From Candidatus Hydrogenedentales bacterium (GTDB lineage Bacteria > Hydrogenedentota > Hydrogenedentia > Hydrogenedentales > JAEUWI01), in assembly GCA_044359155.1 (NCBI GenBank), contig JBIKMR010000002.1:1-45544 (forward strand): 45,544 nucleotides of DNA, in the 5' to 3' direction. Made by a program: the position numbers and the translations under genes. Below are positions 18,184 to 45,544 of the stretch, piece by piece. The notes beneath the pieces are model-generated. The model was not told the origin of the DNA and made no database searches. It was given only the letters and a program-made list of their open reading frames with translations. Numbering within the stretch: the first letter of the stretch is position 1; each line of letters begins with the position of its first letter.

Positions 18184-18196
18184 GGGGATACTACTC

Positions 18197-23918: not shown

Positions 23919-24058
23919 TGCCTTGGTTCCTCGATACCCTATTCTGCATGGTTTGCCTCTGGGATTTCTTCCGGGGGCCTGATTGTTTGTGGTAGCATCG
24001 GCAGGTGTTTCGGCGGCTGGTCATTCGGTTGGGTCGCCGCGTATTGGAGGATAGTTCT

Positions 24059-25798: not shown

Positions 25799-25810
25799 CA
25801 ACCGGACCGC

Positions 25811-29839: not shown

Positions 29840-29860
29840 ATAAGCATTTAGGAACATCCC

Positions 29861-31690
29861 ATGTCCGGCTGTCTCAAGCGCATTTTCCAACTGCTCATCG
29901 CGTTCGTGGTGCTCATCGCGTTGTTCATTACCTTCTATATTGGCATCCCCATCCAGGGGTGGATGTCGCGGGAGGCGCGTGTCACCGCCCCCATCCCAAT
30001 CACCCCCATGTGGGCGTTGGAGCCGTGGGTTTGGGAGGACGATGTGAACACGGGCGCGTTCGTGCAGGAGTTGCTAGATGGATACAAGCAGCACGACATC
30101 CCTGCGCGCACCATCCTTATCGACAGTCCGTGGTCCACGCGTTACAACGATTTCATTGTGGACGAGGCGCGCTATCCGAACCCGAAGGAGTTCTTCACAA
30201 AGCTGCAGGATGACGGCTACCGCGTGGTGTTGTGGATGACGAGCAGCGTGAACCATACGAGCAAGGACACGGCCCTGCCCGAATCGCGCGACTGGTTTGA
30301 GGAAGCGAAGGCCAAGGGCTATCTGATGAACAACGGCGTGGACACCCGCTGGTGGAAGGGGGCGGGCGGCTTCATTGATTATCGCAATCCCGAGGCCATG
30401 AAGTGGTGGCGGGGGTTGCAGCAGGACGTGTTCGATTTTGGGCTGGATGGCTGGAAGCTGGACGGAGCGGAGGTTTACGCGCTCAACAAGTGGGGCGCCA
30501 TTCCCACCCCGTGGCTGAAATCGCACGAGGGCACCATCACCCTGCGAGACTACACCGACGATTACTACAACGAGGAGTACAAGCACGGGTTGACGCAGAA
30601 TCCCGAGTTCATCACGTTGGCGCGGTCTGTGGACAATGGCCCCATTGAAGAGGCGCGGCAAGGTTTGCTGCGAGAGTTGCCCGAGTTCATGGCGGGGCTT
30701 CCCTTTCCGTCCCCCCATCCCGATGGCTTCGCCCCGCGCCAGTCTGCCCCCGTCACATGGGTGGGCGACAACGACCACGCGTGGGTCGAGGAGGAAGAGG
30801 GTATCGAGGAAGCTTTGCGCGACATACTCGAGGCGGCCCGCAAGGGCTACGGCGTCATCGGGTCCGATGTGGGGGGCTATTCCGGCAAAGAGTTTCCGCC
30901 GAACGTCTACATCCGTTGGGCGCAGTTCTCCACCTTTTGCGGGTTGTTCCTCAACGGTGGCCACGGAGAGCGTCGTCTATGGCTGCGCACCCCGCAGGAG
31001 CTGGAGCTGATCCGCGAGGCCGCGTGGCTGCACAGCGAATTGGTGCCCTATATCTACTCCGCCATTGTCGAGCAGCACAGCGGCGGTCCGGTGCTCATGC
31101 GGCCCATGGATGTGGATTTCCAATATGAGTTTGGTCCTGCTTTCTTCGTCGCCCCGATATTCGAGGACAAGCTGGAACGCACGGTGACGCTGCCCGAGGG
31201 CAAGTGGCGCTATTGGTACGATGACTCCGAGCTTATCACAAGCCCGTCAGTGCTCACGCGCTCGTTCCCCATGGACGAGTTCCCCGTATTCGTGCGCGAG
31301 GGCAGCATCATCCCCATGAAGATATCCCGCGACTACACCGGCATTGGTCAGCGCGATTGGGAATCGTTCACGACTTTCAGCATCTACCCTCATGGCGCTG
31401 AATTCACCGAAGAAAGCAGCACGACTTTGCATCGCGAAGGCGCAGGACCAGTTACGGTTCGCGTGCGAAACAAGGAGGCAGCCACAGAGATTACTTTGTC
31501 AGGCGAGCCGCTGGCCCACATACTCCGCCTGCGTGCGGATGCCGCGCCGCAGGGGGTGTCGCTGAATGGGCAAGCGCTTCCAGTGGATCAGTGGAGTTAT
31601 GACGCAGCGAGTAAGAAGATTGTCATCAAGCGCACGTTAGAATTGGACCAGCCTCTTGGAACAGGAGAGCGCGTGTATCGAATCAATTGA
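29861..31690 (+). CDS. Glycoside hydrolase family 31-like enzyme, N-terminally membrane-anchored
   Basis: N-terminal TM helix IFQLLIAFVVLIALFITFYIGI. DIPARTILIDSPWSTRYNDF and GLDGWKLDGAE resemble the GH31 nucleophile region (YicI GVDCFKTDFGE). WVGDN and GSDVGGY are also GH31-like. Specificity is unknown. Confidence 0.8.
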   Translation: MSGCLKRIFQLLIAFVVLIALFITFYIGIPIQGWMSREARVTAPIPITPMWALEPWVWEDDVNTGAFVQELLDGYKQHDIPARTILIDSPWSTRYNDFIVDEARYPNPKEFFTKLQDDGYRVVLWMTSSVNHTSKDTALPESRDWFEEAKAKGYLMNNGVDTRWWKGAGGFIDYRNPEAMKWWRGLQQDVFDFGLDGWKLDGAEVYALNKWGAIPTPWLKSHEGTITLRDYTDDYYNEEYKHGLTQNPEFITLARSVDNGPIEEARQGLLRELPEFMAGLPFPSPHPDGFAPRQSAPVTWVGDNDHAWVEEEEGIEEALRDILEAARKGYGVIGSDVGGYSGKEFPPNVYIRWAQFSTFCGLFLNGGHGERRLWLRTPQELELIREAAWLHSELVPYIYSAIVEQHSGGPVLMRPMDVDFQYEFGPAFFVAPIFEDKLERTVTLPEGKWRYWYDDSELITSPSVLTRSFPMDEFPVFVREGSIIPMKISRDYTGIGQRDWESFTTFSIYPHGAEFTEESSTTLHREGAGPVTVRVRNKEAATEITLSGEPLAHILRLRADAAPQGVSLNGQALPVDQWSYDAASKKIVIKRTLELDQPLGTGERVYRIN

Positions 31691-31709
31691 GTTCTGAGTT
31701 TACCGGTGG

Positions 31710-33389
31710 CTAATCCTGCACCGGCAACACGCAGCGAAAGCCGATGATGGGAAGCTGACTCTCGGGGAAATAGGCTCGGCGTGCGGTGGTTACCAAGTCT
31801 TCTTCGGGCGAAGACCAGCATCCCCCGCGACATACCCTACGCGGTTCTTTGGCCAAGGCCTCCTCGCGACGCCCACTGCGCAATGCGCCGTATGGGCTAT
31901 ACGGGTCAACGGTCCATTCCATCACATTGCCTGCCAGATCAAATATGCCCTCAGGAGATTGCCCCTCTTCATGCATGGTCACCATGCTGGGCATTCCTAT
32001 GAACTCGCCAAAGTTGGCGCGCGTGGAAGACGGGGGCAGGCTGCCCCAGGGATACCTACGGTTCTCACGCCCGCGCGCGGCAAATTCCCACTGTGATTCC
32101 GTCGGCAATTCCTTGCCGCACCAGTGGGCATAGGCCTGCGCCTGTTCCCAGCTGACCCCCACCACGGGCTGGTCCAGCCCATTAAAGTTCGGGTCGCGCC
32201 AGAACTTGGGTTCGGGCTGGCCCGTGGCTTCAAGATAGGCCGTGAACTGCGCCACCGTCACCGGGTACTTGTCCATCCAGAACGGACCCACCGTCACTTC
32301 TTCCTCAGGCGCCTCCGCGCGGATAGCGTCGTTCCCCATCAGGAAGCTGCCGCCTTCCAGGTGGACCATACCTTCGGTCGACACCTCAGCCCGGTCGCCG
32401 TTCACCACGATGTTGGCCGCCGTGGGACGGTACGATTCGTTGTAGGCGTCTCGCAACGCAATGCGGAAATCGCGGGCCGAGGTCCAGCGCTGCTCGCGTT
32501 CTTCCTTTACGGCGCGCCGCAACACCGAAAGCAGACCGGGGGATACATCGCGCCGTACCTGCTCCACTGTAACGGGCGCATCCACTGGCGTGCGGAGTGT
32601 CAGCAGTTCATGAAACACGAGCCCCACGGCATAGAGGTCGGCGCGAGCATCGGTTTCTTGTTGTTTAAGTTGCTCTGGGGCGGCATACGCAAGTGTACCT
32701 ACGACCTTGCCCTTGCCCGCCGCGCGCATCTCCGCTTGGTGCGCGGCTAGGTCCTGGTGCACGGCGCGTGCCAAACCAAAGTCCAGTACTTTCACCGTCT
32801 CGCCCGGCAGCATCATCACGTTCTCGGGCTTGATGTCCCGATGCACCACGAACTTGTGGGCGTATTCCAGCGCCGCCAGCACCTGCTTAATCACCTCGAC
32901 TGCCAAGCGTACCTTCACCAGCTTGCGCTGTTCGCGGTGCCCACGCAGGAAATCGCGCAAGGATTGCCCTTTGGCGAACTCCATGGAAAGGTAGAGGATG
33001 CCCTCGCTGGTCCAGTTTACGTCATGCACCGCGACGATGTTCTCATGCCGCAGTCGCCGCGCCACTTGGGCTTCGCGTAGGAAGAGCTGTTTTCCTTTTT
33101 CCGTAAGCAGTTGCGTGGAAAGGAACTTGAGCGCCACGACCTCATCCACCAGCGTGTCGTGCGCGCGATAGACCACGCCCATGCCGCCGCGCCCAATCTG
33201 CTCCTCAATCAGGTAGCGGTCCGCCACCCGGTCTCCCTTCGAGAAATCGAGGTTCATGTGGCGCTTCATGGTGGTTACGGTGGGAATGGTCACCGGGCCG
33301 CCACAGTTGAAACACACCCCCGTCTTCCCCTGCACCGTGTGTGGGACCATAATTTGCAGACCGCATCTCGGACAGACAGCTTCAATCAT
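31710..33389 (-). CDS. Ser/Thr protein kinase with an N-terminal zinc ribbon and a C-terminal FGE/SUMF1-like domain
   Basis: CPRCG...CFNCG zinc ribbon. Kinase motifs VALKF, HRDIKPENVMM, DFGLAR, GTLAYAAPEQ. C-terminal FGE-sulfatase-type domain (GGSFLMGND, WMDKYPVTVAQF, WEFAARG, YPWG, NVMEWT, RVCRGGCW, IGFRCV). Confidence 0.85.
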   Translation of the reverse strand: MIEAVCPRCGLQIMVPHTVQGKTGVCFNCGGPVTIPTVTTMKRHMNLDFSKGDRVADRYLIEEQIGRGGMGVVYRAHDTLVDEVVALKFLSTQLLTEKGKQLFLREAQVARRLRHENIVAVHDVNWTSEGILYLSMEFAKGQSLRDFLRGHREQRKLVKVRLAVEVIKQVLAALEYAHKFVVHRDIKPENVMMLPGETVKVLDFGLARAVHQDLAAHQAEMRAAGKGKVVGTLAYAAPEQLKQQETDARADLYAVGLVFHELLTLRTPVDAPVTVEQVRRDVSPGLLSVLRRAVKEEREQRWTSARDFRIALRDAYNESYRPTAANIVVNGDRAEVSTEGMVHLEGGSFLMGNDAIRAEAPEEEVTVGPFWMDKYPVTVAQFTAYLEATGQPEPKFWRDPNFNGLDQPVVGVSWEQAQAYAHWCGKELPTESQWEFAARGRENRRYPWGSLPPSSTRANFGEFIGMPSMVTMHEEGQSPEGIFDLAGNVMEWTVDPYSPYGALRSGRREEALAKEPRRVCRGGCWSSPEEDLVTTARRAYFPESQLPIIGFRCVLPVQD

Positions 33390-33592
33390 AAATAGCGATA
33401 CCCACGTCTTGGCGTGGCAACTTCCCCAAGCTCCCAGATTTGGCGCACCGGACCATGCCGGTTTGCGCTACATCACTCGCAACGCATGATCGTACCCGGC
33501 AATCCCGCAAAAAGCCAATATGCCGCATAGGCAATGGGAAACAGGGTGCCCTCGCCTTGTCCGGCCTCGCCCCCAAACGGTACTCTTTCCCC

Positions 33593-34750
33593 ATGAACTA
33601 CTTTCCAGACGACCCAGCCCTCATCCGTTGCACCCGCTGCGTGATGGATTCCCGCGTGCCCGGCATTCATTTCGATGCGCAGGGCGTGTGCCAGTACTGC
33701 CACATGCAAGACCGCATGGAGAAAGACTTTCCGCTGGGCGAGGCGGGGCAGAAGATTCTCGAAGGCTTCACCCAGAAGGCCCGCGCGGCAGGAAAAGGCA
33801 AGCCCTTCGATTGCGTGGTGGGGGTAAGCGGCGGGCGCGACAGCAGCTATTGCCTGTACTACGTGAAAGAAGTGATGGGCCTGCGCCCGCTGGCCGTGCA
33901 TTTCGACAATGGCTGGGATTCCGAGGTGGCCAAGACCAACATCAGCCGCCTGTGCGACGCGCTCGACGTAGAGCTGCATACCGTGATTATGGACTGGCCC
34001 GAGTCGCGCGAGCTGACCAACGCCAACATTCGCGCCTGTGTGCCTTACATCGACATCTTCGACGATATTGGCATCGCCAATTCCCTCTACCGCACGGCGG
34101 AGAAGGAGGGAATCAAGTACGTGTTCCTGGCACATTCCTTCCGCGAGGAAGGGGTAACTCCACTCGTGTGGAACTACGTGGATGGGCGCTTCCAGCAAGC
34201 CATCATCGACCGCTTCTGCAAGATGCCGCTAAAGCAATACAAGAACATCGACATTCCCCAGATGCTCTACTGGATGTTCGTCAAGGGAATCCGTGTCGTC
34301 AATATCACCAACTATTACGACGACGTGGGCGAGCACGTTGAGACCCTGATGAAGGAGAGGCTCAACTGGCTGGACACCGGCCAGCACCACATGGACAACG
34401 AAATGTTCGCGCTTGTCTATTACTACGCGCGGCACAAGTTCGGGTTCGACTGGCGCATCGTTGAGCTGTCCGCCAAGGTGCGCACAGGCGTGTTGTCCAG
34501 GGAAGAAGCCCTCAAGGCGCTGACGGAAGTACCCTTCTTCGAGAACGAAGAGCTGGTGAACTATGGCCTAAAGAAGCAGGGCCTTTCCCGCGAAGAGTTC
34601 GACACCATCCTCCAGGCCCCCAACAAATACTTCACCGACTACCCGTCGTGGTATCCCTTAATCCGCACTATGCGCTGGCCCCTGTTCGTGCTCTGCCGCC
34701 TGCATATCCTTCCCGCGCACGTGTACGAAAAATTCATAATGGCTGTGTAG
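33593..34750 (+). CDS. PP-loop ATP pyrophosphatase, N-acetyl-sugar amidotransferase family (WbuX/WbpG-like)
   Basis: The ATG at 33593 gives MNYFPDDPALIRCTRCVMDSRVPGIHFDAQGVCQYCH (CxxC...CxxC N-terminus), then the PP-loop VGVSGGRDSSY and AVHFDNGW. The track start at 33440 is an unsupported extension. Confidence 0.7.
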   Translation: MNYFPDDPALIRCTRCVMDSRVPGIHFDAQGVCQYCHMQDRMEKDFPLGEAGQKILEGFTQKARAAGKGKPFDCVVGVSGGRDSSYCLYYVKEVMGLRPLAVHFDNGWDSEVAKTNISRLCDALDVELHTVIMDWPESRELTNANIRACVPYIDIFDDIGIANSLYRTAEKEGIKYVFLAHSFREEGVTPLVWNYVDGRFQQAIIDRFCKMPLKQYKNIDIPQMLYWMFVKGIRVVNITNYYDDVGEHVETLMKERLNWLDTGQHHMDNEMFALVYYYARHKFGFDWRIVELSAKVRTGVLSREEALKALTEVPFFENEELVNYGLKKQGLSREEFDTILQAPNKYFTDYPSWYPLIRTMRWPLFVLCRLHILPAHVYEKFIMAV

Positions 34751-36815
34751 CGATGGGCAGCATGGGGCGGCACATGTTGTGGAGCGCACGATAGGGAAAG
34801 CCGACTGGCTTCAGGCGTTCCAGTTCGGCGCCTACTCTCACTGCATCTCTTTCCTGCAAGGCAGCCCGCATCAGCGGGGCATAAAGCGGAATCCATACCC
34901 GGTCGAGCGCGAGGGCGCTATTGAACTCCTTCCACGCTTCTTCCCGCTCGCCTGCCAGCGCGCGCCCCACGGAGCGCGCGAAGAGGGCCGGGGGATAGTC
35001 GCCTGCCAACTGACAGGCTGCCTCAGCTGCTGCTCGACCAAGCTCGGCATCCCCTCCTTCTTCAAAGAGGGCCATCGCCAGAAGGAAATAGTGAACCTTC
35101 GAGTCTGGAATAGGATGTTCAAAGATGTTGGCAAGCAGGGCTTCCGTGCGCGCCGGGTCCAGCGCCATGCCAAGAGATTCCGCCGCAGGATAAACCAAGG
35201 GGGCCACTCCGCCTTGGGGCAGAGGAGGATAGGTAAGTGAGTAGCTAGTCTCTCGAACCTTTATGAGGTACAACGAAATCGGGCTGGAACCGGGGTAGGT
35301 GGTCATCTCTACCTCGTACAGTGCCTGCGAAAGAAAAGGGAGCAACGAGCCTGTGTTCGACAGCGGGGTCGCAATATCCTGCACCGCCACCCACGCCTGC
35401 TTCTCCTCGCGCATTCCCTTCAAGGTGATATCGTTGAAATACGTTTCCACTTCTAGCATCGCCTCGCGTGGCGAGTAGGCCACGGCGACCTCGTCGAGTC
35501 CCACGCCCAAGGCGTAGGCCAGCAACTCATCGTCGCAGCCCGCACCAAAAGTGCTTAGCACCAAGTCCCCCGGTGCCTTGTCGGTGCGGATCTGGTGCGC
35601 CACGCCGTTCCAATCCGGGCGGGTGCCGCCAGACAGCAAGGCTGCAATCTGGTAGCCCATCAAGACCAACACCATGGTGCCCAAGGCTGCGCGCATGGCA
35701 GGATTTCGTAGCCGCGAGAGCAGCAATCCCAGCAAGACATAAAGCGCAAAGCTGGAATACGTAGTGTAGCGCGCTTCAAAGAGGGGGCGCCATGCAAGCG
35801 AAAGCCCAAGCAGCAAGGCGATTGGGAGCAGGTAAACCAGCAGCAGCCAGGTGAGGTTCTGCCTCATCTCTATGCACCGCCACAGCATCGCCCCCCCAAC
35901 CAGAGCAGCCACAGACACCAGCACCATTCCAACGTCGAACAGGCCTTGGAAAGTAAGGAAGCGCTCTGCCGAAGTGAACCAGAGAACAGGGCCATGCAGC
36001 AGGGGAAACCAAAATTCGTTAGTGCGCATCACTGCATCGTCACCCAACAAATCGAACAGTACCTTGCCCGCGTCGGGTAGGCGGTAATGGTCCACCGCCG
36101 ATTCCAGCACGTACTCACGGTTGGACCATAGCCACAAGGCTACACTTACCGCGCCAGCCGCATGCCACGTTCCCCATGCCATCAAGAAGCGCCAACGCCC
36201 CCAGCCCGTGAGCGACAGAAACATTACTTCCGCAGCCAACATGAACGCCGTGAACGGATGCGTCCACAACAAGGCAAGATTGAGCGTGCCGTTGGCCAGC
36301 CACCATCCCGGTTTTCGCGTGCGCACACCCTCCAGCATTGTCCACCACGAAAGCAGCGCCAAGGGTTCTAGCAGGGCATAAGGGCGAATGGCTTGCGCAT
36401 ACCACACGTGGTGGGGGGAGACTGCCAGAAAAGCGCAGGCCCATAACGCGGCAGTACGTCCGCCCATGCGCGCTGCCAGCAGATACAGCAAGGGGATTGC
36501 AGCGCTGCTCAAGCAAACAGAAAACAAGCGTACGGCCAGGGTGGTGGCGCTACCAAGGTGATACACCAAGTAGGCGAGCACCGGATAGAGCGGCGTGTTG
36601 TCCGCGTTCCAGAATCGCCATGCCGAGAGAAAGCCAGCGAAATCGGTCGCGCGAAAATACCCGATGATTAGGTATTCATCGCGCCAAACAGACTGGTCTT
36701 CTATGCGCCAGCAGCGAATCAGAATGCCCAACAACGTGATAAGCAAGAGGGGGGCATGACGCATGGCAAACTGCGTGAACGCGGGGCGCTGTTCTGCCAG
36801 TTCCTTGTTGATCAT
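34734..36815 (-). CDS. GT-C fold (family 39/ArnT/PMT_2-like) polytopic membrane glycosyltransferase with a C-terminal TPR-like domain
   Basis: At least 10 hydrophobic segments. Acidic dyad after TM1 (SVWRDEY). NTPLYPVLAYLVY...AVRLFSV...AVSPHHVWYAQ fits the PMT_2/GT39 pattern. The last roughly 150 aa are helical-repeat-like. The start is either the ATG at 36815 or the ATG at 36764. The 3' end overlaps the convergent amidotransferase gene by 17 nt. Confidence 0.65.
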   Translation of the reverse strand: MINKELAEQRPAFTQFAMRHAPLLLITLLGILIRCWRIEDQSVWRDEYLIIGYFRATDFAGFLSAWRFWNADNTPLYPVLAYLVYHLGSATTLAVRLFSVCLSSAAIPLLYLLAARMGGRTAALWACAFLAVSPHHVWYAQAIRPYALLEPLALLSWWTMLEGVRTRKPGWWLANGTLNLALLWTHPFTAFMLAAEVMFLSLTGWGRWRFLMAWGTWHAAGAVSVALWLWSNREYVLESAVDHYRLPDAGKVLFDLLGDDAVMRTNEFWFPLLHGPVLWFTSAERFLTFQGLFDVGMVLVSVAALVGGAMLWRCIEMRQNLTWLLLVYLLPIALLLGLSLAWRPLFEARYTTYSSFALYVLLGLLLSRLRNPAMRAALGTMVLVLMGYQIAALLSGGTRPDWNGVAHQIRTDKAPGDLVLSTFGAGCDDELLAYALGVGLDEVAVAYSPREAMLEVETYFNDITLKGMREEKQAWVAVQDIATPLSNTGSLLPFLSQALYEVEMTTYPGSSPISLYLIKVRETSYSLTYPPLPQGGVAPLVYPAAESLGMALDPARTEALLANIFEHPIPDSKVHYFLLAMALFEEGGDAELGRAAAEAACQLAGDYPPALFARSVGRALAGEREEAWKEFNSALALDRVWIPLYAPLMRAALQERDAVRVGAELERLKPVGFPYRALHNMCRPMLPIATQPL

Positions 36816-36825
36816 CCGTGCCTGC

Positions 36826-38535
36826 TCAATAGCTTCGTTGCGCAAAGTAGGGGCCGAGCGCAAGGCAATCCAGCCCCGCCGTCACGAAAGCCTTGGCCGC
36901 CTCATCCGGCGTGCGAACAATAGGCTCCTCGTGAATATTGAAGCTGGTGTTCAACAGCACCCCCGCGCCGCTGTGCTTCGCATATGCAGAGAGTATCGTA
37001 TGGAGACCGGGGTTTCTGTCCCTATGTACAAACTGCGTGCGCGCCGTATTGTCCACATGCACTACGGCGGGGAACAGTGCCTTCATCTCTGCCGAGCAGT
37101 CGTAGCACACGGTCATGAATTCGCCCGCGAAGAGCCCGGCTTCGTGGTTCACCATGAAACGGTTTGCCTCCTCCGCCAACATGGCCGGGGCAAAAGGCAT
37201 AAAGTCCGTGCGCTTCAGTTGCTGGTTCAGCTTTGCCACCATAGACGCATCGTTAGCAGGGGCCAGAATCGAGCGGTTGCCTAGCGAGCGCGGCCCCCAT
37301 TCCATGCGCCCATCCAGTCTGCCCACCGATTTGCCTTCCGCCAGCTTATCGCCAATATGCTGTGCGATTTCTGATGGTTTCGAATATGCGAGTCCATGCT
37401 TCTTGAATGCCTGCTCGCACTCGGCATCGGAGAAGTCGTCTCCTAGGAAAACATTACTGATCCGCGTGCGCTCCAAGAATCCGCAACCGGCCAGCGCCCC
37501 CACGGGGTTACCGCCGTCGCTCATGTTAGGGGCAACAAAGATTTCCTTTACCCCCGGCAATGCGGCCAGCCGCTGGTTCAGCTTCACGTTTGCGGCAATG
37601 CCTCCGCCGAACACCAGCCGCGTTTCCCCGGTAATGCGCAGCCAATGCTGCACCAACGTTAGCATGGTTTCTTCGAGCACCTGCTGCGCCCACGCGGCCA
37701 CGTCTTCACGCGAGTAGCGCTGGAGCAGGTTGTCTCGAAACCATCGCACGGCCCGCAACCCGTGTGGGCCTTCGTAGCGGATGTCGCCTTCACGTACCAA
37801 GAAGGGATTCTTTTCCAATACCTGCACAGGGTCGCCGTGCGCGGCCAAGCCCGTAAGCTTGCCCTCGTCCCGCCCAGGCACATAGCCATAAGCCTCTGTC
37901 AAAGCTTCAAAGAACAGGCCCAGCGAATGCTGCGCTGAGCACCATGCAAGCCGCTCCACGCGCCCATCCCTGCAAGCGCTTACCGTGGTGGAAACCCCAT
38001 CACCCATGCCGTCCGCAGTAACGCACAGGGCCCGGTCGAAACCCGAAAGATAGTAGGCGCAATTGGCGTGGGCGGGGTGATGCTCAATGATATGGATGCG
38101 CGCATGGCGCAACGCTTTGGGCAGCTCTCTTCGCAGCACGGCGGGAAGGATGCGCCTCGTGATCTTGCTGGCATTACCGCCCGGTGCTTGGTGGGCCAAT
38201 GGGGTATGATGAATCACGAAGTCGGCAATGTGCCGCATCATGCCCTCGCTGCGCGAATTCTGGGATTGCCATAGTCGCTCCTGCACCACGGGGAAGAGGC
38301 GCGTCAACAGTTGCGGGGTGAGAATGCCCGACACGCAAATGTCTGTAACGGAAGCGGGAGATGCGTGCAGATACGCCAGCATCCCCGCCAAGGACGCCGC
38401 CGGGAACCCGCCGTCATTCTTGCGGCGGGTGAAGCGTTCCTCATTGGCTGCATACAGCAAGCGCTTTCCGTCGCTCGCTGCAACGCCGCTGGTGTACAGG
38501 TCCTCATTGATTCCCAGCGCAAGCAAGAATGCCAA
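36826..38535 (-). CDS. Carbamoyltransferase (NodU/CmcH family)
   Basis: (M)AFLLALGINEDLYTSGVAASDGKRLLYAANEERFTRRKNDGGFP matches the family N-terminus, and the length of about 566 aa fits. No ATG start is available. The TTG at 38535 directly abuts AAGGAG, so the TTG at 38526 (9 nt after AAGGAG) is the more likely start. Confidence 0.85.
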   Translation of the reverse strand: MAFLLALGINEDLYTSGVAASDGKRLLYAANEERFTRRKNDGGFPAASLAGMLAYLHASPASVTDICVSGILTPQLLTRLFPVVQERLWQSQNSRSEGMMRHIADFVIHHTPLAHQAPGGNASKITRRILPAVLRRELPKALRHARIHIIEHHPAHANCAYYLSGFDRALCVTADGMGDGVSTTVSACRDGRVERLAWCSAQHSLGLFFEALTEAYGYVPGRDEGKLTGLAAHGDPVQVLEKNPFLVREGDIRYEGPHGLRAVRWFRDNLLQRYSREDVAAWAQQVLEETMLTLVQHWLRITGETRLVFGGGIAANVKLNQRLAALPGVKEIFVAPNMSDGGNPVGALAGCGFLERTRISNVFLGDDFSDAECEQAFKKHGLAYSKPSEIAQHIGDKLAEGKSVGRLDGRMEWGPRSLGNRSILAPANDASMVAKLNQQLKRTDFMPFAPAMLAEEANRFMVNHEAGLFAGEFMTVCYDCSAEMKALFPAVVHVDNTARTQFVHRDRNPGLHTILSAYAKHSGAGVLLNTSFNIHEEPIVRTPDEAAKAFVTAGLDCLALGPYFAQRSY

Positions 38536-38626
38536 CTCCTTTGCCAGTCCATAAGCGGCCTGATTTCCCCGGTTCCTAGTCTAGCTTCCGGGGGCGGGCC
38601 ATGTCACTACATCGCACCGAAAGACG

Positions 38627-38655
38627 TTGCGGCTGCGCCATGCCTGCCCTATACT
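38627..38655 (+). promoter_or_regulatory. Candidate sigma70-type promoter for the radical SAM / GT2 genes
   Basis: TTGCGG (38627-38632), a 17-nt spacer, then TATACT (38650-38655), lying 64 nt upstream of the ATG at 38719 in the divergent intergenic region. This is a motif match only. Confidence 0.3.
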
Positions 38656-38718
38656 GTGGACACCAGCCACAGGCCCGCCAAGACCGGGCAATTCTTTTGG
38701 GGCATTCAGACAAACAGC

Positions 38719-39831
38719 ATGGCGGATACGGTACAGATTACCAAACCGGCGCACACCGCGCAGCCCGCCGAACCCGTTGTCGAGACGGGCGAGGGGCCGC
38801 CCTCGTCCCTGTTCTACGGCCCCGTAGGCGCGCTTATGCAGAAGCTACTGCGCCCTTATCTCTACCACGTCATCGTGCATATTACCGACCGCTGTAACCT
38901 GCGTTGCAAGACTTGCTTCATTGAGTTTGGGCGCAAGGACTTGTCCGTTGAAGAAGCCAGGGTGTTGTCCGGGAAGCTGGGATACATCCCCGCCTTGGAC
39001 CTTGGCGGCGGTGAGCCTTTCCTGCACAAGGACCTGCCCGGCCTCTGCCGGGAGTTTCGATTCGGAAGCGTCACCATCCCCACGAACGGCCAGTTCCAGG
39101 ACCGGGTTATCGAGTCAGTGAAGGTGCTGCTCAAGGAGCATCCCGGCAAGGTGACCATTGCCTTGTCGCTCGATGGGCCGGAAGAGATCAACAACGCGAT
39201 ACGCGGCCCGCGCACTTACGAGAAGGCCCTTGCCACGTACCACGAGCTGCGCAAGCTGGATGGCCTCACGCTCAAGGTAAACACCGTGGTGAACAACCGC
39301 AACGCGGATCGCATCGTTGAGTTCGTTCGCGAGATTCGCCAGCTCAACCCGGACTACCACTCGCTGCTGCTATTGCGTGGCGACCCGCTGGCCCCGGAAG
39401 AAGTGCAGCTTCCCGACATGGCCACGCTCCGCGCCATCACGCCCGAGCTGCTCGCCATTCTACGCACCTACACCTTCGGGCACCGCTTCAATTTTCTGCT
39501 GCGCCAGATGAAGTACAACTACCAGCGCTACATGTGGAACATCCAGCTCGACATGATTGAGCACCAGCGCGCCCCCTTCCAGTGCAAAGCACCCCGCTAC
39601 AACAAGGTGGTCTATGCCGATGGCCAGACTTCAATGTGCGAGCTTATGCCGCGCCTGGACAACCTGCTCGAATCTACCCCCGAAGCCGTCGACACCAAGC
39701 TGCGCAATCACTTACAGGACTTCGAGGCCAAGAACGGCAAATGCTTCTGCACGCACAACTGCAACATCTCTGAAAACATCATGACCCACCCGCCCTCCGT
39801 GGCCAAGGTCCTGCTCGGTCTCTCGCGGTAA
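38719..39831 (+). CDS. Radical SAM protein with a Cys-rich C-terminal region (possible auxiliary-cluster, SPASM/twitch-like)
   Basis: HITDRCNLRCKTCF (CxxxCxxC), GGGEPFL, and LSLDGPEEINNAIRG...TYEKALATYHELRKL. The C-terminus carries FQCK...MCEL...GKCFCTHNC. I chose the ATG at 38719. An in-frame GTG at 38656 is possible. The track start at 38311 lies antisense inside the carbamoyltransferase gene. Confidence 0.75.
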   Translation: MADTVQITKPAHTAQPAEPVVETGEGPPSSLFYGPVGALMQKLLRPYLYHVIVHITDRCNLRCKTCFIEFGRKDLSVEEARVLSGKLGYIPALDLGGGEPFLHKDLPGLCREFRFGSVTIPTNGQFQDRVIESVKVLLKEHPGKVTIALSLDGPEEINNAIRGPRTYEKALATYHELRKLDGLTLKVNTVVNNRNADRIVEFVREIRQLNPDYHSLLLLRGDPLAPEEVQLPDMATLRAITPELLAILRTYTFGHRFNFLLRQMKYNYQRYMWNIQLDMIEHQRAPFQCKAPRYNKVVYADGQTSMCELMPRLDNLLESTPEAVDTKLRNHLQDFEAKNGKCFCTHNCNISENIMTHPPSVAKVLLGLSR

Positions 39832-40760
39832 TGGCCCTTCCCGTCGCCTCCGTGCTGATACCCACCTACAACCGCCACGACGATCTGCTGCACCTGCTGC
39901 ATGATCTCGCGGCACAGTCCTCCGATTCCTTCGAGGTGGTGATAGTGGACGACGCCAGCATGCCGCCAATAGCGGAAGCTCTGGCCCCAAACGACTTTCC
40001 GTATCCCATCAAACTATCGCGCAACGAGGGCAACCAAGGTATTGGATACAGCCGCAACCGCTGCATCGATGCGTCCACCGGCGCGTTCATTCTCTGGATA
40101 GACAGCGACTCCCGCGTGCCCAGCCCTGACTGGATTGCGTGGCATGTTCGTCAACACCAAGAGGGAGAGCCAAGGCTGGTCCACAGCGAAGTGCAAGGGG
40201 CGACCCCCAACTACGCGGGCCGCACCTTCTTTTATAGCAACTGGTTCGGTTCCTGCGGCAAGGTTGCCAAGCGCGCAATGGACCACCACCTGCCCACCAA
40301 CAACACCAGTCTGCCGCGTACCTTGCTCGAACAGGTGGGGCGTTTTGATGAGACCCTCCGCGCTGCTGAAGATGTGGACTGGTCCCTACGAGCGCTGGCC
40401 CAAGGCATACCCCTGTGGTACCAGCCGGGAATGCCCGTGCTCCACCGAGACCGCGACACCCTCCGCGCCGTTTGGGACAGCTACCGCAACATCGGGAAAT
40501 ACGGCCAACGCGTGAGAATGAAGCAAGCCAGCTCTCCCCACGGCTGGCTCTACCCCAGAAGCCCAGCCCTCGCCTCCCTCTACGTCCTGCCCCTATCCCT
40601 GCTCATGACCCTCTACATCCTCTGGACCTGGCTCCCCGTCGATCCCCGAGCATTGCTCTACGCCCCCGGCCTCTACCTCGCCAACTTCGCCTACGCGCTG
40701 GGCGTGGTGGATGGGATTAAGAAGTCCTTCGCATCCAGTTGTAATGCCCCAATTCGCTAG
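39831..40760 (+). CDS. Family 2 glycosyltransferase with two C-terminal hydrophobic helices (ArnC/GtrB/Dpm1-like architecture)
   Basis: VASVLIPTYNRHDDL...FEVVIVDDAS and WIDSDS (DxD). C-terminal hydrophobic segments are ALASLYVLPLSLLMTLYILWTWL and LLYAPGLYLANFAYALGVV. Its ATG overlaps the upstream TAA by 1 nt. Confidence 0.8.
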   Translation: MALPVASVLIPTYNRHDDLLHLLHDLAAQSSDSFEVVIVDDASMPPIAEALAPNDFPYPIKLSRNEGNQGIGYSRNRCIDASTGAFILWIDSDSRVPSPDWIAWHVRQHQEGEPRLVHSEVQGATPNYAGRTFFYSNWFGSCGKVAKRAMDHHLPTNNTSLPRTLLEQVGRFDETLRAAEDVDWSLRALAQGIPLWYQPGMPVLHRDRDTLRAVWDSYRNIGKYGQRVRMKQASSPHGWLYPRSPALASLYVLPLSLLMTLYILWTWLPVDPRALLYAPGLYLANFAYALGVVDGIKKSFASSCNAPIR

Positions 40761-40783
40761 TAGCGAGATTTCTTGGGTGGCTT

Positions 40784-42844
40784 CTACTTTCTAATTCGTA
40801 ACAGAAGTGGCTCAGGATTATCGGCTACGACAGAAATGATTGGTGGAAGCAGTGGGTAGCCACGGAGTCTGGCTAGCTCTATCTTAAGTCTTGCCGTATC
40901 CTGTGATTCCAACGCAGCTACCATTTCTTTAAACGTAGCCATTATCCATCCCCCCTTTGCAAGGGCATGCTTTAGGTGTTTTATTCCGGAGTCTCGATCT
41001 CCCGCCAATATCTCAACTACACCTAGCGTAAGGTATACAGGCGGGTACAGGGGATACATCTCATGTGATTTCCGGGCGACTTTCAATGCATGACCAGTGT
41101 CAGAATTGGCAAGAAGTAATGCCGCAAGATATGTCCCTGTCATTGGGTCGGAGTTCTCCCAAGGATAGTCAAGAACTCTGCGTAATGCGGCAGCAGTCTC
41201 GGGATCGGCTGATAGTCCAAAGAAATCGGCCACATTTGCAATCTCTTCTTCCTTTAACAAACCAAAGCAGGAATCTTTCAAGGACGTCCGAAAGTTGGGT
41301 TCAGTTGAGATGCTGAGTATCTGAATCCCATCCATTCCTGAAAAAGTCCGCACTAACTTTACTGAATATCCCCTTTGCTCAAACTTGCTCTTCATCATCT
41401 CTAGTCCCTCTGGTTGTGTTGCTTCACTTACCAGCCAGACTTTATCGCCATGATCTTTAGAGTTGTCGATTACGTTCTCACAAAACATCGTAATGCTGTA
41501 CACGGGCCGCATGTCGAAACTTGCCAGCGATAGTTCGGCAAAGCGCAGTATCTTCTCGCATAGCAATGGCATGGTGGTCTTGACAAAAACAGTCTCTTCC
41601 TTGGAGACATTCTGGGCCACCCATAATGCCGCAGCTTTCCAATTCGTTCGTGTTGTTGCCGAGGCGAGCAGTGCCAACTGTGATGATTGCAAAATAAGAA
41701 GCAGAAGCACTGCAAACAAGGCAACCCGTCGCCCGAGCATGGAGAGCGAGGCCGACAAGACAAGGTAGTAGCCCGTAGAGGAATAGAGCACAAAGCGGTA
41801 TGCGAAGGCCGGCTGATAGAGCACACTGAGTAACCAAAGCACCAAGGGAGGCAAAATCCACAGCAGCACTGGCAACAACATGGGGATGCGTTCATTGATC
41901 GCCGACAATCTCCAATCGGCATCAAGGGGCTTTGCAAGCGTCCTCCAACATGCGACAATCATGCAGAAGAGTGGCAGCAGAATTATAGACAGGGTAGGTA
42001 GAAAATCTAATGGTAACAAGAAAGCCGTAATCCTTGGCATCCCCTCCTCAATTTCGTAAGAAAGTGGAAACTCGATTGTGTGTTCAATCGTGCCATGCCC
42101 CAGTAAGGTCGCGGCAAATTGCAACAGGGTTGGTACAGAATAGTCCCCGCTAAAGGAAATGAAATAGCGAAACGTGTATGCGAGCCAAAGGCTAGTCATC
42201 ACCAATGCAGGAACTTGAAAAGCACACCAAACTATGGTTTCACGTATTTTCAGGCGACGAGTAGAAACTAGATATAGTCCGGCGGCCAATAAAGCGAAGC
42301 AAGTGAAAATGTGAGTCATAAGCATCAACGAACTAACCATGCTGTTTACAATCAGCCAGGCAGGCCTGCTGCTTCGTTCCCACCGCAAGAAGGAGTATAT
42401 GAAAAGTATTGCGAGAAGGGTCGCTAATGAATAGCATAGGCAGCTCTGGGACCACCAGACGTGGGGAGGGGAGAGCGCCATAAAGACAGCCGAAAAATAT
42501 GCGAATTCTCGGGGTAAAAGTAGACGGGCGAGGTTGTACATTGCCAAGATGGACATCGTGCCAAGTACAACGTTTAGATAGCGTGGCCCGAATGTCGTGC
42601 CTTGCCACAATTCTGAGGTAAGGTATATCAGAGTGTAGTAAGCGGGAACATGCGTCCCCCCCCACGTGTTTACGCCAGCCAAGTACTCCGTCAATGAAAC
42701 CCCGGTTGGAAGGGCTGCAAGGGAGTAATCTTCCCAATAAAATGACTGGGCTTCCAGCCCGTATAGGCGAAGAGCTAAGGTTATTATGCCAAGAAAAGAA
42801 AAGGCACCAACTTCACGCCAGTCGTAGCTTGTAGTGTTATGCAT
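40784..42844 (-). CDS. Second GT-C fold (family 39/ArnT/PMT_2-like) membrane glycosyltransferase with a C-terminal TPR-like domain, low-GC copy
   Basis: ATG at 42844. Acidic dyad after TM1 (SFYWEDY). HVPAYYTLIYL...ALSPPHVWWSQ parallels the 34734-36815 protein. It is polytopic, with a helical-repeat tail (YLTLGVVEILAGDRDSGIKHLKHALAKG). Codon usage is markedly AT-richer than in neighbouring genes. Confidence 0.65.
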   Translation of the reverse strand: MHNTTSYDWREVGAFSFLGIITLALRLYGLEAQSFYWEDYSLAALPTGVSLTEYLAGVNTWGGTHVPAYYTLIYLTSELWQGTTFGPRYLNVVLGTMSILAMYNLARLLLPREFAYFSAVFMALSPPHVWWSQSCLCYSLATLLAILFIYSFLRWERSSRPAWLIVNSMVSSLMLMTHIFTCFALLAAGLYLVSTRRLKIRETIVWCAFQVPALVMTSLWLAYTFRYFISFSGDYSVPTLLQFAATLLGHGTIEHTIEFPLSYEIEEGMPRITAFLLPLDFLPTLSIILLPLFCMIVACWRTLAKPLDADWRLSAINERIPMLLPVLLWILPPLVLWLLSVLYQPAFAYRFVLYSSTGYYLVLSASLSMLGRRVALFAVLLLLILQSSQLALLASATTRTNWKAAALWVAQNVSKEETVFVKTTMPLLCEKILRFAELSLASFDMRPVYSITMFCENVIDNSKDHGDKVWLVSEATQPEGLEMMKSKFEQRGYSVKLVRTFSGMDGIQILSISTEPNFRTSLKDSCFGLLKEEEIANVADFFGLSADPETAAALRRVLDYPWENSDPMTGTYLAALLLANSDTGHALKVARKSHEMYPLYPPVYLTLGVVEILAGDRDSGIKHLKHALAKGGWIMATFKEMVAALESQDTARLKIELARLRGYPLLPPIISVVADNPEPLLLRIRK

Positions 42845-42914
42845 AACAAGAGTTTTCGAGGGTGTACCGAAGCGGGAAGAGCAACTTTAAGCAAGGAAGT
42901 CATCTTGGGGCGAG

Positions 42915-44480
42915 TTAAACTTTAGCGCGCTTGGTCCGAAAAATGGAAAAGCGAAGGCGCGAAAGCATCACTTCGGGAAGGCGTTCGAGAAGTGTCGTTG
43001 GATTGGAACGAGCTACCCGCGCTATCGATTCAATGACACGCCATGGGCGAAAAAGAAACTGGGAGCTGTAAAATATCGCCATTCCGAGAAGGGCTAAAAT
43101 TCGCAATTCTGTCCCGCTTATATTCTTGTTCCAAGAGTTCACATTTCCATAATTGTTATACAGACTCAGTGCCATGAAGCGGTCATAAGCTTCCCCTTCT
43201 GGGGGAAGCGCACCACTTGCACGGAGCTCTTTATTTAATGCGCTCCCAGGATAAGGATGGAAAATGTAGACAGGCACATCATGTACGCCCGCATAGGCCA
43301 TGCGTATCATGAACCAGTAGCTCTTAAAGATGTCCCTGCGCGCCTCAAACGGGAATCCCATAATGATGTGCGCTTTGGAAACTATTCCTTCGCGTGAGCA
43401 TGCTTTCATGCTTTTTAGCATGCTTTCGAGGTTGACTTTTTTCTGGATTCGCTCCAATACCAGCTGCGAGCCGCTCTCCGGCGCAAATGAGAGTCTGGGG
43501 CATCCGGATTGCTTAAGCAATCGAATAACTTCCCCGTCCATGGCTTCTGAACGGGTGCCAGAGGGCATGGTCCATGTAATTCCAATATTCTCTGCTATCA
43601 ATAAATTGCAGAATTCCTTTATCCAATCTTTACGAATAATCGTTGTTAGATCGAAAAAGGATACACTGTCGATGCCATACTTGTTAGTATATAACTTCAT
43701 TTCCTCCAGGACAGCAACGGGAGATCGAACATTCCATAGCTTACCCCACATTCCAGGATTAGAGCAGAACGTGCAGCGAAACGGGCACCCGCGCGATGCA
43801 AGCATCGGCATCATTCTTCCACGCGTGGAACCAAAGCCACCGCCTCGCTCAAGGTATTGCTCTATTGGAAACAAGTCCCACTTGGGAAGGGGATATGAAT
43901 CCAGATCTCGCTGGCGTTTCGCGGGAACAGTGAATGATATCTCGCCACTTGGAATACGATAAGCAATTCCTGCGACAGTAGCCAGGTCGCGCCCGTTGTT
44001 TAAGGCGTCCAACAGGTCAACAATGATTTCTTCACCTTCACCGCGAACACACGCCATTACCCCAGGGCAGCTTCGTAAAATGTAGTCGGCATCAGCGGTT
44101 GCCTGTTCGCCACCCATCACGACAGGAATAGCTGGGAAGGCCTTGAACAAGGCTTCCAGTACCAATTTGCAATGGAACCATTCTGAAGCAAACATGCATG
44201 ACACACCAATCAGTTCGGTGTCTCTTGGAATTCTTTCAACTACTTCAGTAATGGTGAGTCCGTTAACCATTAGCGGCATGTCTGGAACAGGAATATGCTG
44301 ATTTAAGGCCTCACCAACGGCGTCAATTACTTGGACCGAATAGCCGGCTTCGTCAAGAACAGCTGCAATGTACGCCAACCCTAAAGGTGGAGAACCCGTT
44401 GCACTGACGTCGGTATCAAGCTTGAATATCTGTGAAACCGATGGCGGGCGTAGCAGGATAATTTTTCGAATCCGTGTCAT
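42915..44480 (-). CDS. B12-binding-domain radical SAM protein (class B-like), low-GC copy
   Basis: N-terminal cobalamin-binding-type Rossmann region (ILLRPP...PPLGLAYIAAVLDEAGYSVQVIDA) and the radical SAM motif MLASRGCPFRCTFCSNP. 521 aa, ATG at 44480. Confidence 0.85.
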   Translation of the reverse strand: MTRIRKIILLRPPSVSQIFKLDTDVSATGSPPLGLAYIAAVLDEAGYSVQVIDAVGEALNQHIPVPDMPLMVNGLTITEVVERIPRDTELIGVSCMFASEWFHCKLVLEALFKAFPAIPVVMGGEQATADADYILRSCPGVMACVRGEGEEIIVDLLDALNNGRDLATVAGIAYRIPSGEISFTVPAKRQRDLDSYPLPKWDLFPIEQYLERGGGFGSTRGRMMPMLASRGCPFRCTFCSNPGMWGKLWNVRSPVAVLEEMKLYTNKYGIDSVSFFDLTTIIRKDWIKEFCNLLIAENIGITWTMPSGTRSEAMDGEVIRLLKQSGCPRLSFAPESGSQLVLERIQKKVNLESMLKSMKACSREGIVSKAHIIMGFPFEARRDIFKSYWFMIRMAYAGVHDVPVYIFHPYPGSALNKELRASGALPPEGEAYDRFMALSLYNNYGNVNSWNKNISGTELRILALLGMAIFYSSQFLFRPWRVIESIARVARSNPTTLLERLPEVMLSRLRFSIFRTKRAKV

Positions 44481-44529
44481 GATTTAAACCAAGTAGTCAA
44501 TACAAAGTGTGGCGAAAAAACACGAAACG

Positions 44530-45544
44530 TTAACTTGTTGCATGGTCGGACTTGATGGCATGGGCGGCTGTATCGGGCGCAGAATTTGGCTTCATGAGCA
44601 ACAAGCGGTGAAGTGCGTTGGACATCACCCGCTCAATGAGGGTCGAAGGAGAATCCGTCAACAAACGTGTTGCCGTTGCAATTAACCGCCAAGGGCGAAA
44701 CGCATACTGGAGCACGTAGAACATCAGCGAGCCACCCACCAGTAACATGCGCAATTGGCTGTCGCTTACGTACTCGTTCCAAGACTTCGGGCGGCTATAG
44801 TTATTGTTCAGGTTGGACGCAAGCATCCGGTCGTACTCGTCCCCCTCGGGGGGGAACATGCCCTTTTCAGAAAGCTCGCGTTGGAGTTCGCTTCCCGGAT
44901 AAGGGGCAAACGGAAAGATTGCAATGTCATGCAGGCCAGCCCACGCAAGCTGCACGATGAACACCAGCGTTTCCGCCATGTGGCGGGGGCGTTCTCCGGG
45001 AAATCCAAAGATGATGTTTGCGCGTGCGAATATGCCTTCCCGTGCGCATGAGCGGACGGTGGTCAACATCTTGTCCAGCTTTACCTGTTTCTTGATGCGT
45101 TCCAGCGTGTGTGGGCTGCCGCTCTCTGGGGCAAGGTTCAAGGTCAAGCAGCCGGATTTGCGCATGGCAGCCACCACCGTGCGATCCAGAGCTTCGGAGC
45201 GCGTTCCCGAGGGCAGCAGCCAATTGACATTAAGCTCCGCCTCTAATATCAGGCGAGTGAATTCAAGAATCCAGTCCCGCTTGATGACGGCGGTCAAGTC
45301 ATAGAAAGCAAAGCTGTCTACGTCGTACTCGTTCTTGTAGTAGGTCATTTCCTTTACGACGTCTTCAGGCGAACGAATGCTCCAAAGCTTGCCCCACATC
45401 TGAGGGTTCGAGCAAAACGTGCAGCGATAGGGGCAACCCCGTGAGGCCAGCATCGGCATGGTGCGCCGTCCCACGGTGCCATGCGCTGCCCCGGCATCTA
45501 GGTAATTCCGAATCGGCAGCAGGTCCCATGCGGGCCAAGGCAAC
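44530..45544 (-). CDS. B12-binding-domain radical SAM protein, paralog of 42915-44480. The N-terminus lies beyond the window edge.
   Basis: MLASRGCPYRCTFCSNPQMWGKLWSIRSP, LPSGTRSEA, APESGS and FRPWR all align with the neighbouring gene. The frame is open to the window edge, and the first codon in the track is just the edge (TTG). Confidence 0.85.
   Translation of the reverse strand, partial: LPWPAWDLLPIRNYLDAGAAHGTVGRRTMPMLASRGCPYRCTFCSNPQMWGKLWSIRSPEDVVKEMTYYKNEYDVDSFAFYDLTAVIKRDWILEFTRLILEAELNVNWLLPSGTRSEALDRTVVAAMRKSGCLTLNLAPESGSPHTLERIKKQVKLDKMLTTVRSCAREGIFARANIIFGFPGERPRHMAETLVFIVQLAWAGLHDIAIFPFAPYPGSELQRELSEKGMFPPEGDEYDRMLASNLNNNYSRPKSWNEYVSDSQLRMLLVGGSLMFYVLQYAFRPWRLIATATRLLTDSPSTLIERVMSNALHRLLLMKPNSAPDTAAHAIKSDHATS

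Follow-up and report, generated by a model that had tools for sequence, protein, structure and literature searches.

A modular, strain-variable gene island possibly devoted to envelope glycan or glycoprotein modification in a Candidatus Hydrogenedentales bacterium

The DNA analyzed here (the window) is an entire 45.5-kb metagenomic contig (JBIKMR010000002.1, 45,544 nt) from a Candidatus Hydrogenedentales bacterium, and our subject is an island of eight adjacent genes that spans the contig from 33.6 kb to its right end. An initial annotation had described these genes as encoding three glycosyltransferases, an amidotransferase, a carbamoyltransferase and three radical S-adenosylmethionine (SAM) enzymes. 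Searches with Pfam and NCBIfam profiles showed that all eight are present as long intact open reading frames (ORFs) having the domains so described. The genes, with the names used below, are:

33593-34750, plus strand: PP-loop N-acetyl-sugar amidotransferase of the WbuX family (WbuX), 385 residues
34734-36863, minus strand: glycosyltransferase of the C fold (GT-C), PMT_2 family (GT-C1); the longest ORF has 709 residues, the likely start being the ATG at 36815 (693 residues)
36826-38535, minus strand: carbamoyltransferase of the NodU/CmcH/TobZ type, 569 residues
38656-39831, plus strand: radical SAM protein with a cysteine-rich tail (rSAM); the start is uncertain (38656 or 38719) and the conserved part begins at about 38848
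39831-40760, plus strand: membrane-anchored family 2 glycosyltransferase (GT2), 309 residues
40784-42844, minus strand: second GT-C glycosyltransferase of the PMT_2 family (GT-C2), 686 residues
42915-44480, minus strand: cobalamin-binding radical SAM protein (B12a), 521 residues
44530-45543, minus strand: paralog of B12a (B12b) cut by the contig end; complete (about 500-560 residues) in L001, the longest contig of the same lineage

The genes form four transcription units on alternating strands: B12b-B12a-GT-C2 (minus), rSAM-GT2 (plus), carbamoyltransferase-GT-C1 (minus) and WbuX (plus). The rSAM and GT2 ORFs overlap by 1 nt and hence are translationally coupled, and the carbamoyltransferase stop codon either overlaps the GT-C1 start or sits no more than 10 nt from it. 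The catalytic signatures are intact: SGGRDS, HHPAH, three CxxxCxxC motifs, DSD plus ED in the GT2 and a DE or ED dyad in the GT-C proteins. Searches with Rfam gave neither riboswitches nor other RNAs for the window, for L001 or for the sister-strain contig L016 described below, and no tRNA genes were found. We propose, giving the proposal about the same weight as its negation, that this modular and strain-variable island serves to modify a glycan or glycoprotein of the envelope outside the cytoplasm, following the three-component logic of the Gtr and Arn systems.

The case for this proposal begins with the two membrane transferases. Both score above the gathering cutoff of the Pfam PMT_2 model (26.1 bits), GT-C1 at 31.4 bits and GT-C2 at 38.5 bits, and the two are paralogs that align end to end (25% identity, E 1e-38). 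Single-sequence searches of the PDB with either protein gave nothing useful; it took a family profile and a predicted structure to place them. The profile matched ArnT (4.5e-20) and Pmt1 (1.3e-14). AlphaFold modeling of GT-C1, with 54 homologs as input, gave a mean predicted local distance difference test score (pLDDT) of 87.7 and a predicted template modeling score of 0.88, and when this model was compared with the PDB by Foldseek the best 35 matches were all GT-C enzymes (E 4.5e-7 to 1.6e-2), with ArnT first, followed by STT3, PglB, AglB, ALG9/12, Pmt4, AftD and Emb. The view that the membrane proteins are GT-C enzymes was therefore upheld, for GT-C1 by a model that has the GT-C fold, and for GT-C2 by full-length paralogy, from which we judge its architecture to be the same. 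The acidic dyads (WRDEY and YWEDY) and the shared motif (SPHHVWYAQ and SPPHVWWSQ) pointed out in the initial annotation are present and conserved in alignments. The RDE of GT-C1 and the EDY of GT-C2 fall in a conserved D/E-D/E column (six of six sequences, and in a set of 54), which opens the first extracytoplasmic loop in both proteins, and profile alignment sets this column onto the DE of ArnT "DEGRY" and Pmt1 "DEVHF". Judged by family membership, both proteins would use a polyprenyl-phosphate-linked donor at the extracytoplasmic face of the membrane.

The island proteins thus share with the ArnT and PMT enzymes (PMT_2; GT83/GT39) the GT-C fold, the DE dyad at loop 1 and the PMT_2 Pfam domain. 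However, structural alignments give only 12-15% identity with TM-scores of 0.34-0.57, and the island proteins have their own conserved loop, LGDDAVMRTNEF, and their own C-terminal alpha/beta plus TPR-like domain (TPR, tetratricopeptide repeat). The GT-C1 model has about 11 membrane helices, an alpha/beta domain at residues 428-530 and eight helices at residues 583-695 that form about four TPR-like hairpins and match small TPR proteins (2pl2; TM-score normalized to the target, 0.40). Hence, of the GT-C plus TPR architecture first described, these modeled hairpins stand but a canonical TPR tail does not: by sequence the signal is weak, with a TPR_14 match below the Pfam cutoff in GT-C2 (E 0.006) and none in GT-C1. 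The likeness drawn earlier to TMTC1-4, the eukaryotic O-mannosyltransferases, proved to be superficial. Those enzymes also have a GT-C membrane domain followed by extracytoplasmic helical-repeat modules, but the C-terminal part of the island proteins is an alpha/beta domain with about four hairpins rather than a TMTC-style array, has no canonical TPR match above the Pfam cutoff, and showed no detectable DUF1736 or TMTC-specific similarity. An exhaustive search of 1.84 billion representative proteins gave 178 GT-C clusters at E <= 1e-30, many of about 700 residues and matching end to end, with only three above 40% identity. Among 185,579 species genomes the close subfamily was found in one locus only (L015, from a Hydrogenedentota metagenome-assembled genome, MAG), and a metagenome scan with GT-C peptide patterns gave no confirmed relative.

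The second line of evidence comes from a sister strain, represented by the 178-kb contig L016. DNA comparison of the window with L016 gave an alternation of conserved and replaced segments:

29834-34904: GH31, kinase-FGE and WbuX genes and the last 57 codons of GT-C1; 95.4% identity
34905-38847: the remainder of GT-C1, the carbamoyltransferase gene and the promoter region; collapsed (64% or undetectable)
38848-40714: rSAM and GT2; 94.6% identity
40715-44622: GT-C2 and B12a; collapsed
44623-45544: B12b; 88% identity

The boundaries of these segments are sharp, which argues for allelic replacement by recombination. At the protein level WbuX (98% identical), rSAM (99.7%), GT2 (95%) and B12b (96.5%) contrast with the carbamoyltransferase (61%) and with GT-C1 (45%), the most divergent gene of the island; B12a is 55% identical to its counterpart. 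A similar pattern holds between two other island loci, L012 and L014 (WbuX 96%, carbamoyltransferase 66%, GT-C 48%; L014 lacks rSAM and GT2 so these do not apply). At the GT-C2 position L016 has a GT-C protein only 24% identical and L012 has none, and L016 also carries one extra cobalamin-binding radical SAM (B12-rSAM) gene. The GC contents of GT-C2 (0.484) and B12a (0.485), compared with 0.60 for the window and 0.56-0.57 for the L016 counterparts, suggest that this low-GC block is a recently imported cassette. The cassette junctions have no flanking direct or inverted repeats, the only repeat being that between the B12a and B12b paralogs. The swapped blocks each comprise a GT-C gene and the tailoring gene beside it (the carbamoyltransferase for GT-C1, B12a for GT-C2), and such co-exchange suggests a one-to-one match of transferase and tailored donor. 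By analogy, such cassette swapping is the behavior of serotype-determining surface-glycan loci.

The third line of evidence is recurrence. That the gene set might be conserved elsewhere had been raised in the initial annotation, and indeed it recurs in other lineages with different flanks. Homologs of GT-C1 with 39-46% identity are found in four loci having unrelated flanks (L012 to L015). L012 and L013 have B12-rSAM, GT2, rSAM, carbamoyltransferase, GT-C and WbuX genes and lack GT-C2; L012 has two B12-rSAM genes, while L013 breaks off there. The set of L014 is reduced to a carbamoyltransferase, a different B12-rSAM, a GT-C and WbuX, and in L015 a B12-rSAM gene adjoins the GT-C gene. More loci were reached through homologs of GT2; of these, L019 and L020 encode a B12-rSAM, a PMT_2 protein, a carbamoyltransferase, a flippase-like protein, a SPASM radical SAM protein, rSAM, GT2 and a second PMT_2 protein, with an ArnC/PgfS-like GT2 further on. 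In the MAG contig L031 (2520-14040) PMT_2, rSAM, GT2 and PMT_2 genes are consecutive, with genes for an ArnC-like GT2, an NAD-dependent epimerase and a PIG-L deacetylase nearby, an arrangement that is Arn-like and includes the rSAM-GT2 pair. At the other extreme, loci in Hydrogenedentes contain only TetR, rSAM and GT2 genes, and L101 (2676-6317) has rSAM, GT2 and B12-rSAM amid housekeeping genes.

A metagenome scan with the rSAM alignment gave 80 loci (L021 to L100), and neighbors were counted in the 21 having at least 4 kb on each side of the rSAM gene. GT2 was present in all 21, an ArnC-like GT2 (loosely assigned) in nine, a GT-C in six, a B12a-family radical SAM in six, a carbamoyltransferase in four and WbuX in two. 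The GT2 gene lay directly downstream of rSAM at every locus where positions were checked, and the pair occurs in at least 118 metagenome stretches. Hence the island is composite: the rSAM-GT2 pair is obligate and widespread, and the B12-rSAM, GT-C, carbamoyltransferase and WbuX genes are facultative. All of these modules recur in contexts of the envelope-glycan type. We also observed that rSAM-GT2, often with a B12a-family radical SAM, occurs as a stand-alone module in marine, freshwater and other metagenomes, and that in several lineages the pair lies beside a UbiA protein resembling decaprenyl-phosphate phosphoribosyltransferase, SDR epimerases or a 755-residue protein lacking a Pfam match.

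These comparisons bear on one alternative, that the eight genes are neighbors by chance or by shared horizontal transfer and have no joint function. The variation of gene content among loci, the four separate transcription units on alternating strands and the heterogeneous GC content all speak for such an assemblage. However, these families co-occur again in Planctomycetota-like, Hydrogenedentota and other contigs whose flanks are unrelated, and both rSAM-GT2 and carbamoyltransferase-GT-C1 are translationally coupled. We therefore consider a chance assemblage very improbable.

A three-component system requires a synthase that loads the sugar onto the lipid carrier, and the initial annotation had compared the window GT2 with enzymes of the ArnC/GtrB/Dpm1 type. 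This comparison found no support in NCBIfam, in a PDB profile search or in Foldseek. The protein matches Pfam Glycos_transf_2, and its AlphaFold model (pLDDT 90.7) has two C-terminal hydrophobic helices (252-267 and 272-304); a GT-A domain followed by such a hairpin is also found in other membrane GT2 proteins such as PcManGT. The best NCBIfam models were EpsD and MftF, with no match to ArnC (PRK10714) or PgfS. When a 16-sequence GT2 profile was searched against the PDB, chondroitin synthase (176 bits) and PglI (109 bits) scored best, with TarS also in the first-ranked group, whereas DPMS (70 bits), GtrB (51 bits) and ArnC (49 bits) matched over the N-terminal 110-150 residues only. The Foldseek neighbors of the model were TarS, TarP, WrtF, PcManGT, AvpGT, GalNAc-T, RmlT and K4CP; ArnC, GtrB and DPMS were absent from the 50 best. 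The window GT2 is thus not of the ArnC/GtrB type. The positive control for the PDB profile test was an additional GT2 encoded in L016, which is ArnC-like (ArnC 1.9e-33, 119 bits; GtrB 1e-18; DPMS 2e-16).

This ArnC-like gene of L016 sits about 270 nt past the end of L001 and is followed by a gene for a 696-residue polytopic membrane protein lacking a Pfam match (17965-19274 region of L016). Hence, in the sister strain the island does go on past the right edge of the window, as the earlier surmise had it. L001 (1-352 region) holds the full B12b gene plus about 170 nt of noncoding DNA upstream. B12a is carried by 17 contigs, and the nine for which DNA was available all end within or just upstream of B12b, a shared end that strain heterogeneity downstream would explain.

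Among the tailoring enzymes, WbuX scored 213.4 bits against TIGR03573 (cutoff 203.2), has the SGGRDS PP-loop and an N-terminal CxxC...CxxC (Zn-ribbon cysteine pairs), matches the N-acetyl sugar amidotransferase 8wex (E 4e-10) and is 84-98% identical to the WbuX proteins of the other island loci. Thus it resembles WbuX, WbpG and PseA, the amidotransferases of O-antigen and flagellin-glycan acetamidino sugars, in passing TIGR03573 and in its PP-loop and Zn-ribbon, although its score is barely above the cutoff. Near the island gene we found no WbuY/WbuZ-type partner and no O-antigen assembly gene (Wzx, Wzy or initiating transferase). The carbamoyltransferase scored well over both Pfam cutoffs (Carbam_trans_N 93.6 bits, Carbam_trans_C 186.8 bits); its identification as a NodU equivalog was rejected (102 bits against a cutoff of 1000).

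The rSAM protein matches Pfam Radical_SAM and has a viperin/MoaA-like core, which hints at a nucleotide-type substrate. No NCBIfam family came near its cutoff, viperin being the best (53 bits against 180). Its invariant cysteines are C80, C84 and C87 (CxxxCxxC) plus five in the C-terminal tail (C310, C328, C363, C365 and C369), in a C-x17-C with G-x4-C and in CFCTHNC; the tail has no Pfam SPASM match. B12a contains CPFRCTFC and matches the B12-binding (56 bits) and Radical_SAM (79 bits) domains; its best NCBIfam models (BchE, the P-methyltransferase family, ApyD and HpnJ) all fell far under cutoff, and its closest PDB match was AprD4 (E 7e-15). B12b is 50% identical to B12a, and both have a hydrophobic C-terminal helix. 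For neither was an NCBIfam equivalog family close to its cutoff.

A viperin-like core could also be taken to indicate a viperin-like antiviral defense cluster, and the weak matches of rSAM and the B12-rSAM proteins to ApyD, SkfB and WgkB, maturases of peptides that are made by ribosomes and modified after translation (RiPPs), to indicate a RiPP maturation cluster. The PADLOC pVip model does match rSAM at 61 bits, but over the core only; the rSAM tail is different and cysteine-rich, and the other seven island proteins match no named PADLOC system. The candidate model PDC-M51A matches B12a and B12b weakly (33 and 20 bits), and PD-T4-6 matches of the kinase that borders the island cover the generic kinase domain only. 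The intergenic gaps (23-200 nt) hold no conserved ORF of precursor size, and there is no RiPP recognition element, protease or exporter. We rejected both the defense and the RiPP readings, to which we attach hardly any credence.

More serious is the alternative that the head group of a membrane lipid is made or remodeled by the core formed by rSAM and GT2, with or without a B12-rSAM. The genes for GT-C, carbamoyltransferase and WbuX would then be add-ons or unrelated neighbors. In such a pathway GT2 would add a hexose or N-acetylhexosamine, which the radical enzymes would rearrange or methylate, as in the HpnH/HpnI/HpnJ hopanoid pathway or in archaeal calditol synthesis. This accords with the L101 locus, where rSAM, GT2 and B12-rSAM stand alone among housekeeping genes, with the partners of rSAM in the 21 long loci (GT2 always, GT-C in six), with the membrane anchor of GT2 and the hydrophobic C-terminal helices of B12a and B12b, and with weak NCBIfam matches to HpnJ, HpnH, Tes and a ladderane-lipid B12-rSAM; GDGT-MAS was among the PDB matches of rSAM. 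However, the scores are far under cutoff (HpnJ 120 against 578, HpnH 31 against 225) and HpnI gave no match, and thus orthology to the hopanoid proteins was ruled out. Moreover, a lipid pathway leaves unexplained the adjacency and co-replacement of GT-C genes with a carbamoyltransferase or B12-rSAM gene in at least five lineages, and the presence of WbuX, a family known from nucleotide-sugar pathways. A role in lipid head group synthesis is plausible for the rSAM-GT2-B12 sub-module; as an account of the whole island we think it unlikely.

The tailoring enzymes also recall antibiotic biosynthesis. In formation of unit F of moenomycin the carbamoyltransferase MoeM5, the B12-rSAM methyltransferase MoeK5 and the amidotransferase MoeF5 act on a lipid-linked sugar at the membrane, and the island has the same trio of carbamoylation, cobalamin-radical SAM chemistry and amidotransfer. 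The moenomycin amidotransferase is, however, of the AsnB type rather than the PP-loop WbuX type, the island lacks a prenyl-phosphoglycerate synthase, and moenomycin biosynthesis lacks a GT-C enzyme. The island could accordingly be a secondary-metabolite cluster for a tailored saccharide, either aminoglycoside-like or a moenomycin-like phosphoglycolipid in which the first sugar is carbamoylated, C-methylated by a B12-rSAM and amidated. Besides the moenomycin enzymes, of which MoeK5 appears in reviews of the B12-rSAM class, the tailoring set resembles TobZ, GenK and AprD4 of the aminoglycosides, AprD4 being the closest solved relative of B12a. However, none of the loci contained a gene for a scaffold-forming enzyme, a transporter, a regulator or resistance, GT-C enzymes are not known to belong to such clusters, and exchange of transferase alleles among strains that are 95% identical is what surface-antigen loci typically show. 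We regard a metabolite cluster as improbable, less likely than the lipid pathway.

We return to the proposal of a glycan- or glycoprotein-modifying locus. In the three-component systems described by Kelly et al. (2024), a lipid-linked donor synthase, a flippase and a GT-C enzyme act together and auxiliary epimerases diversify the sugar transferred (PMC11127046); a section heading of that paper states that a C-terminal carbohydrate-binding module takes part in substrate binding. The island resembles such systems (GtrA/GtrB/GtrC, ArnC-ArnD-ArnE/F-ArnT and the pentofuranose GT136 systems of PMC11127046) in its GT-C proteins with a predicted periplasmic C-terminal substrate-binding domain, in the ArnC/PgfS-like GT2 genes of the related loci L016, L019 and L031, in having auxiliary cytoplasmic enzymes that could remodel a lipid-linked donor much as ArnD or the epimerases do, and in a strain-to-strain variation like that of serotype-converting loci. 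It differs in that the window lacks both a GtrA, MATE or ArnE/F flippase and its own donor synthase, in having two to three GT-C paralogs per locus, and in that the two B12-rSAM proteins, the twitch-like rSAM, the carbamoyltransferase and WbuX lack a counterpart in the three-component systems described so far. All components are members of known superfamilies, and the scheme as a whole resembles known GT-C modification systems; the island is therefore not categorically new. What is unprecedented is the association of radical SAM enzymes with GT-C transferases. The earlier statement that the combination maps to no characterized pathway held: no curated family, solved structure or paper describes the gene set, and literature searches for the combination gave nothing relevant.

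We infer the following order of steps. The sugar, probably an N-acetylhexosamine because WbuX enzymes act on N-acetyl groups, would be loaded onto polyprenyl phosphate by the ArnC-like GT2 whose gene, in the sister strain, lies shortly past the contig end. At the membrane's inner face the donor would then be tailored by cytoplasmic enzymes dependent on ATP, carbamoyl phosphate, SAM or cobalamin, through acetamidino formation, O-carbamoylation and radical methylation or rearrangement. A flippase would carry the donor across the membrane, and GT-C1 and GT-C2 would transfer it to a periplasmic or surface acceptor bound by their predicted periplasmic alpha/beta and TPR-like domains. The rSAM-GT2 pair would be a separate sub-module, probably one in which a sugar altered by radical chemistry serves to build or lengthen a glycoconjugate bound to the membrane.

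Several points weigh against this scheme. We know of no radical SAM enzyme that acts on a polyprenyl-phosphate sugar used by a GT-C enzyme. The window has no gene for a flippase, a polyprenyl-phosphate sugar synthase or an acceptor, its GT2 does not resemble ArnC or GtrB, and the only flippase candidate is the flippase-like protein of L019 and L020, which scored below threshold. L014 and L015 have a GT-C without the rSAM-GT2 pair, and rSAM-GT2, in some cases joined by a B12-rSAM, occurs without a GT-C in L101, in L017 and in the majority of the 80 metagenome loci. As GT-C and rSAM-GT2 occur apart, each sub-module can act by itself, and a single pathway need not unite the eight genes. Finally, all of the chemistry given to the island is read from family membership, at scores far below equivalog cutoffs. 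More speculative still, and in our view doubtful, is the broader idea that radical SAM chemistry, supplied by two to three cobalamin-dependent enzymes plus a viperin-core enzyme hard-wired to a GT2, diversifies polyprenyl-phosphate-linked donors that co-evolving GT-C enzymes install on the surface, the whole forming a cassette-swapping "serotype" system of Planctomycetota and Hydrogenedentota.

The remainder of the window suggests an organism of planctomycete type, as it encodes PSCyt1/PSCyt2/PSD1 and DUF1501 proteins, several sulfatases and a fusion of a kinase to a domain of the formylglycine-generating enzyme (FGE)-sulfatase type. The initial annotation saw no sugar-nucleotide synthase in the window. 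This is correct for the island but not for the window, since two sugar-1-phosphate nucleotidyltransferase genes, GlmU-like (12934-14292, plus strand) and ManC-like (17086-18183, minus strand), lie 15-20 kb upstream of the island. The same stretch contains genes for an aldo/keto reductase (15886-17055) and a GFO/IDH/MocA oxidoreductase (11727-12809), and it is possible that these four genes supply nucleotide sugars to the island. The ORF at 21005-22672 (minus strand, 555 residues), beside two sulfatase genes, has no Pfam match. At 23139-29761 a gene with an L-amino-acid-ligase C-terminal domain is followed by a full oligopeptide/dipeptide ABC transporter operon (SBP_bac_5, two permeases and two ATPases) that appears unrelated to the island.

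The Ser/Thr kinase-FGE fusion (31710-33389, minus strand) borders the island. In another contig (L011, 8205-12673), otherwise unrelated to the island, a 55%-identical kinase-FGE ortholog lies directly upstream of the gene for a PMT_2 protein of 890 residues (P0003) with a long TPR array. On these two observations, kinase-FGE proteins of this type may be functionally linked to GT-C/TPR proteins.

If our proposal is correct, the range of GT-C-based glycan modification in the periplasm would widen to take in donors with radical SAM, carbamoyl and amidino tailoring, and the B12-rSAM proteins would become new candidates for C-methylation or rearrangement of sugars on lipid carriers. Should the donor-diversifying idea also hold, it would be the first link of radical SAM enzymes to three-component periplasmic glycosylation, and sugars could be C-methylated (or ring-contracted), carbamoylated and amidinated at once. 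The widespread, uncharacterized rSAM-GT2 pair and a distinct GT-C family of about 700 residues would both gain a testable context. For the bacteria themselves, the island would mark a hypervariable surface determinant, probably driven by phages or grazers, in the poorly understood envelope of the Planctomycetes-Verrucomicrobia-Chlamydiae (PVC) group.

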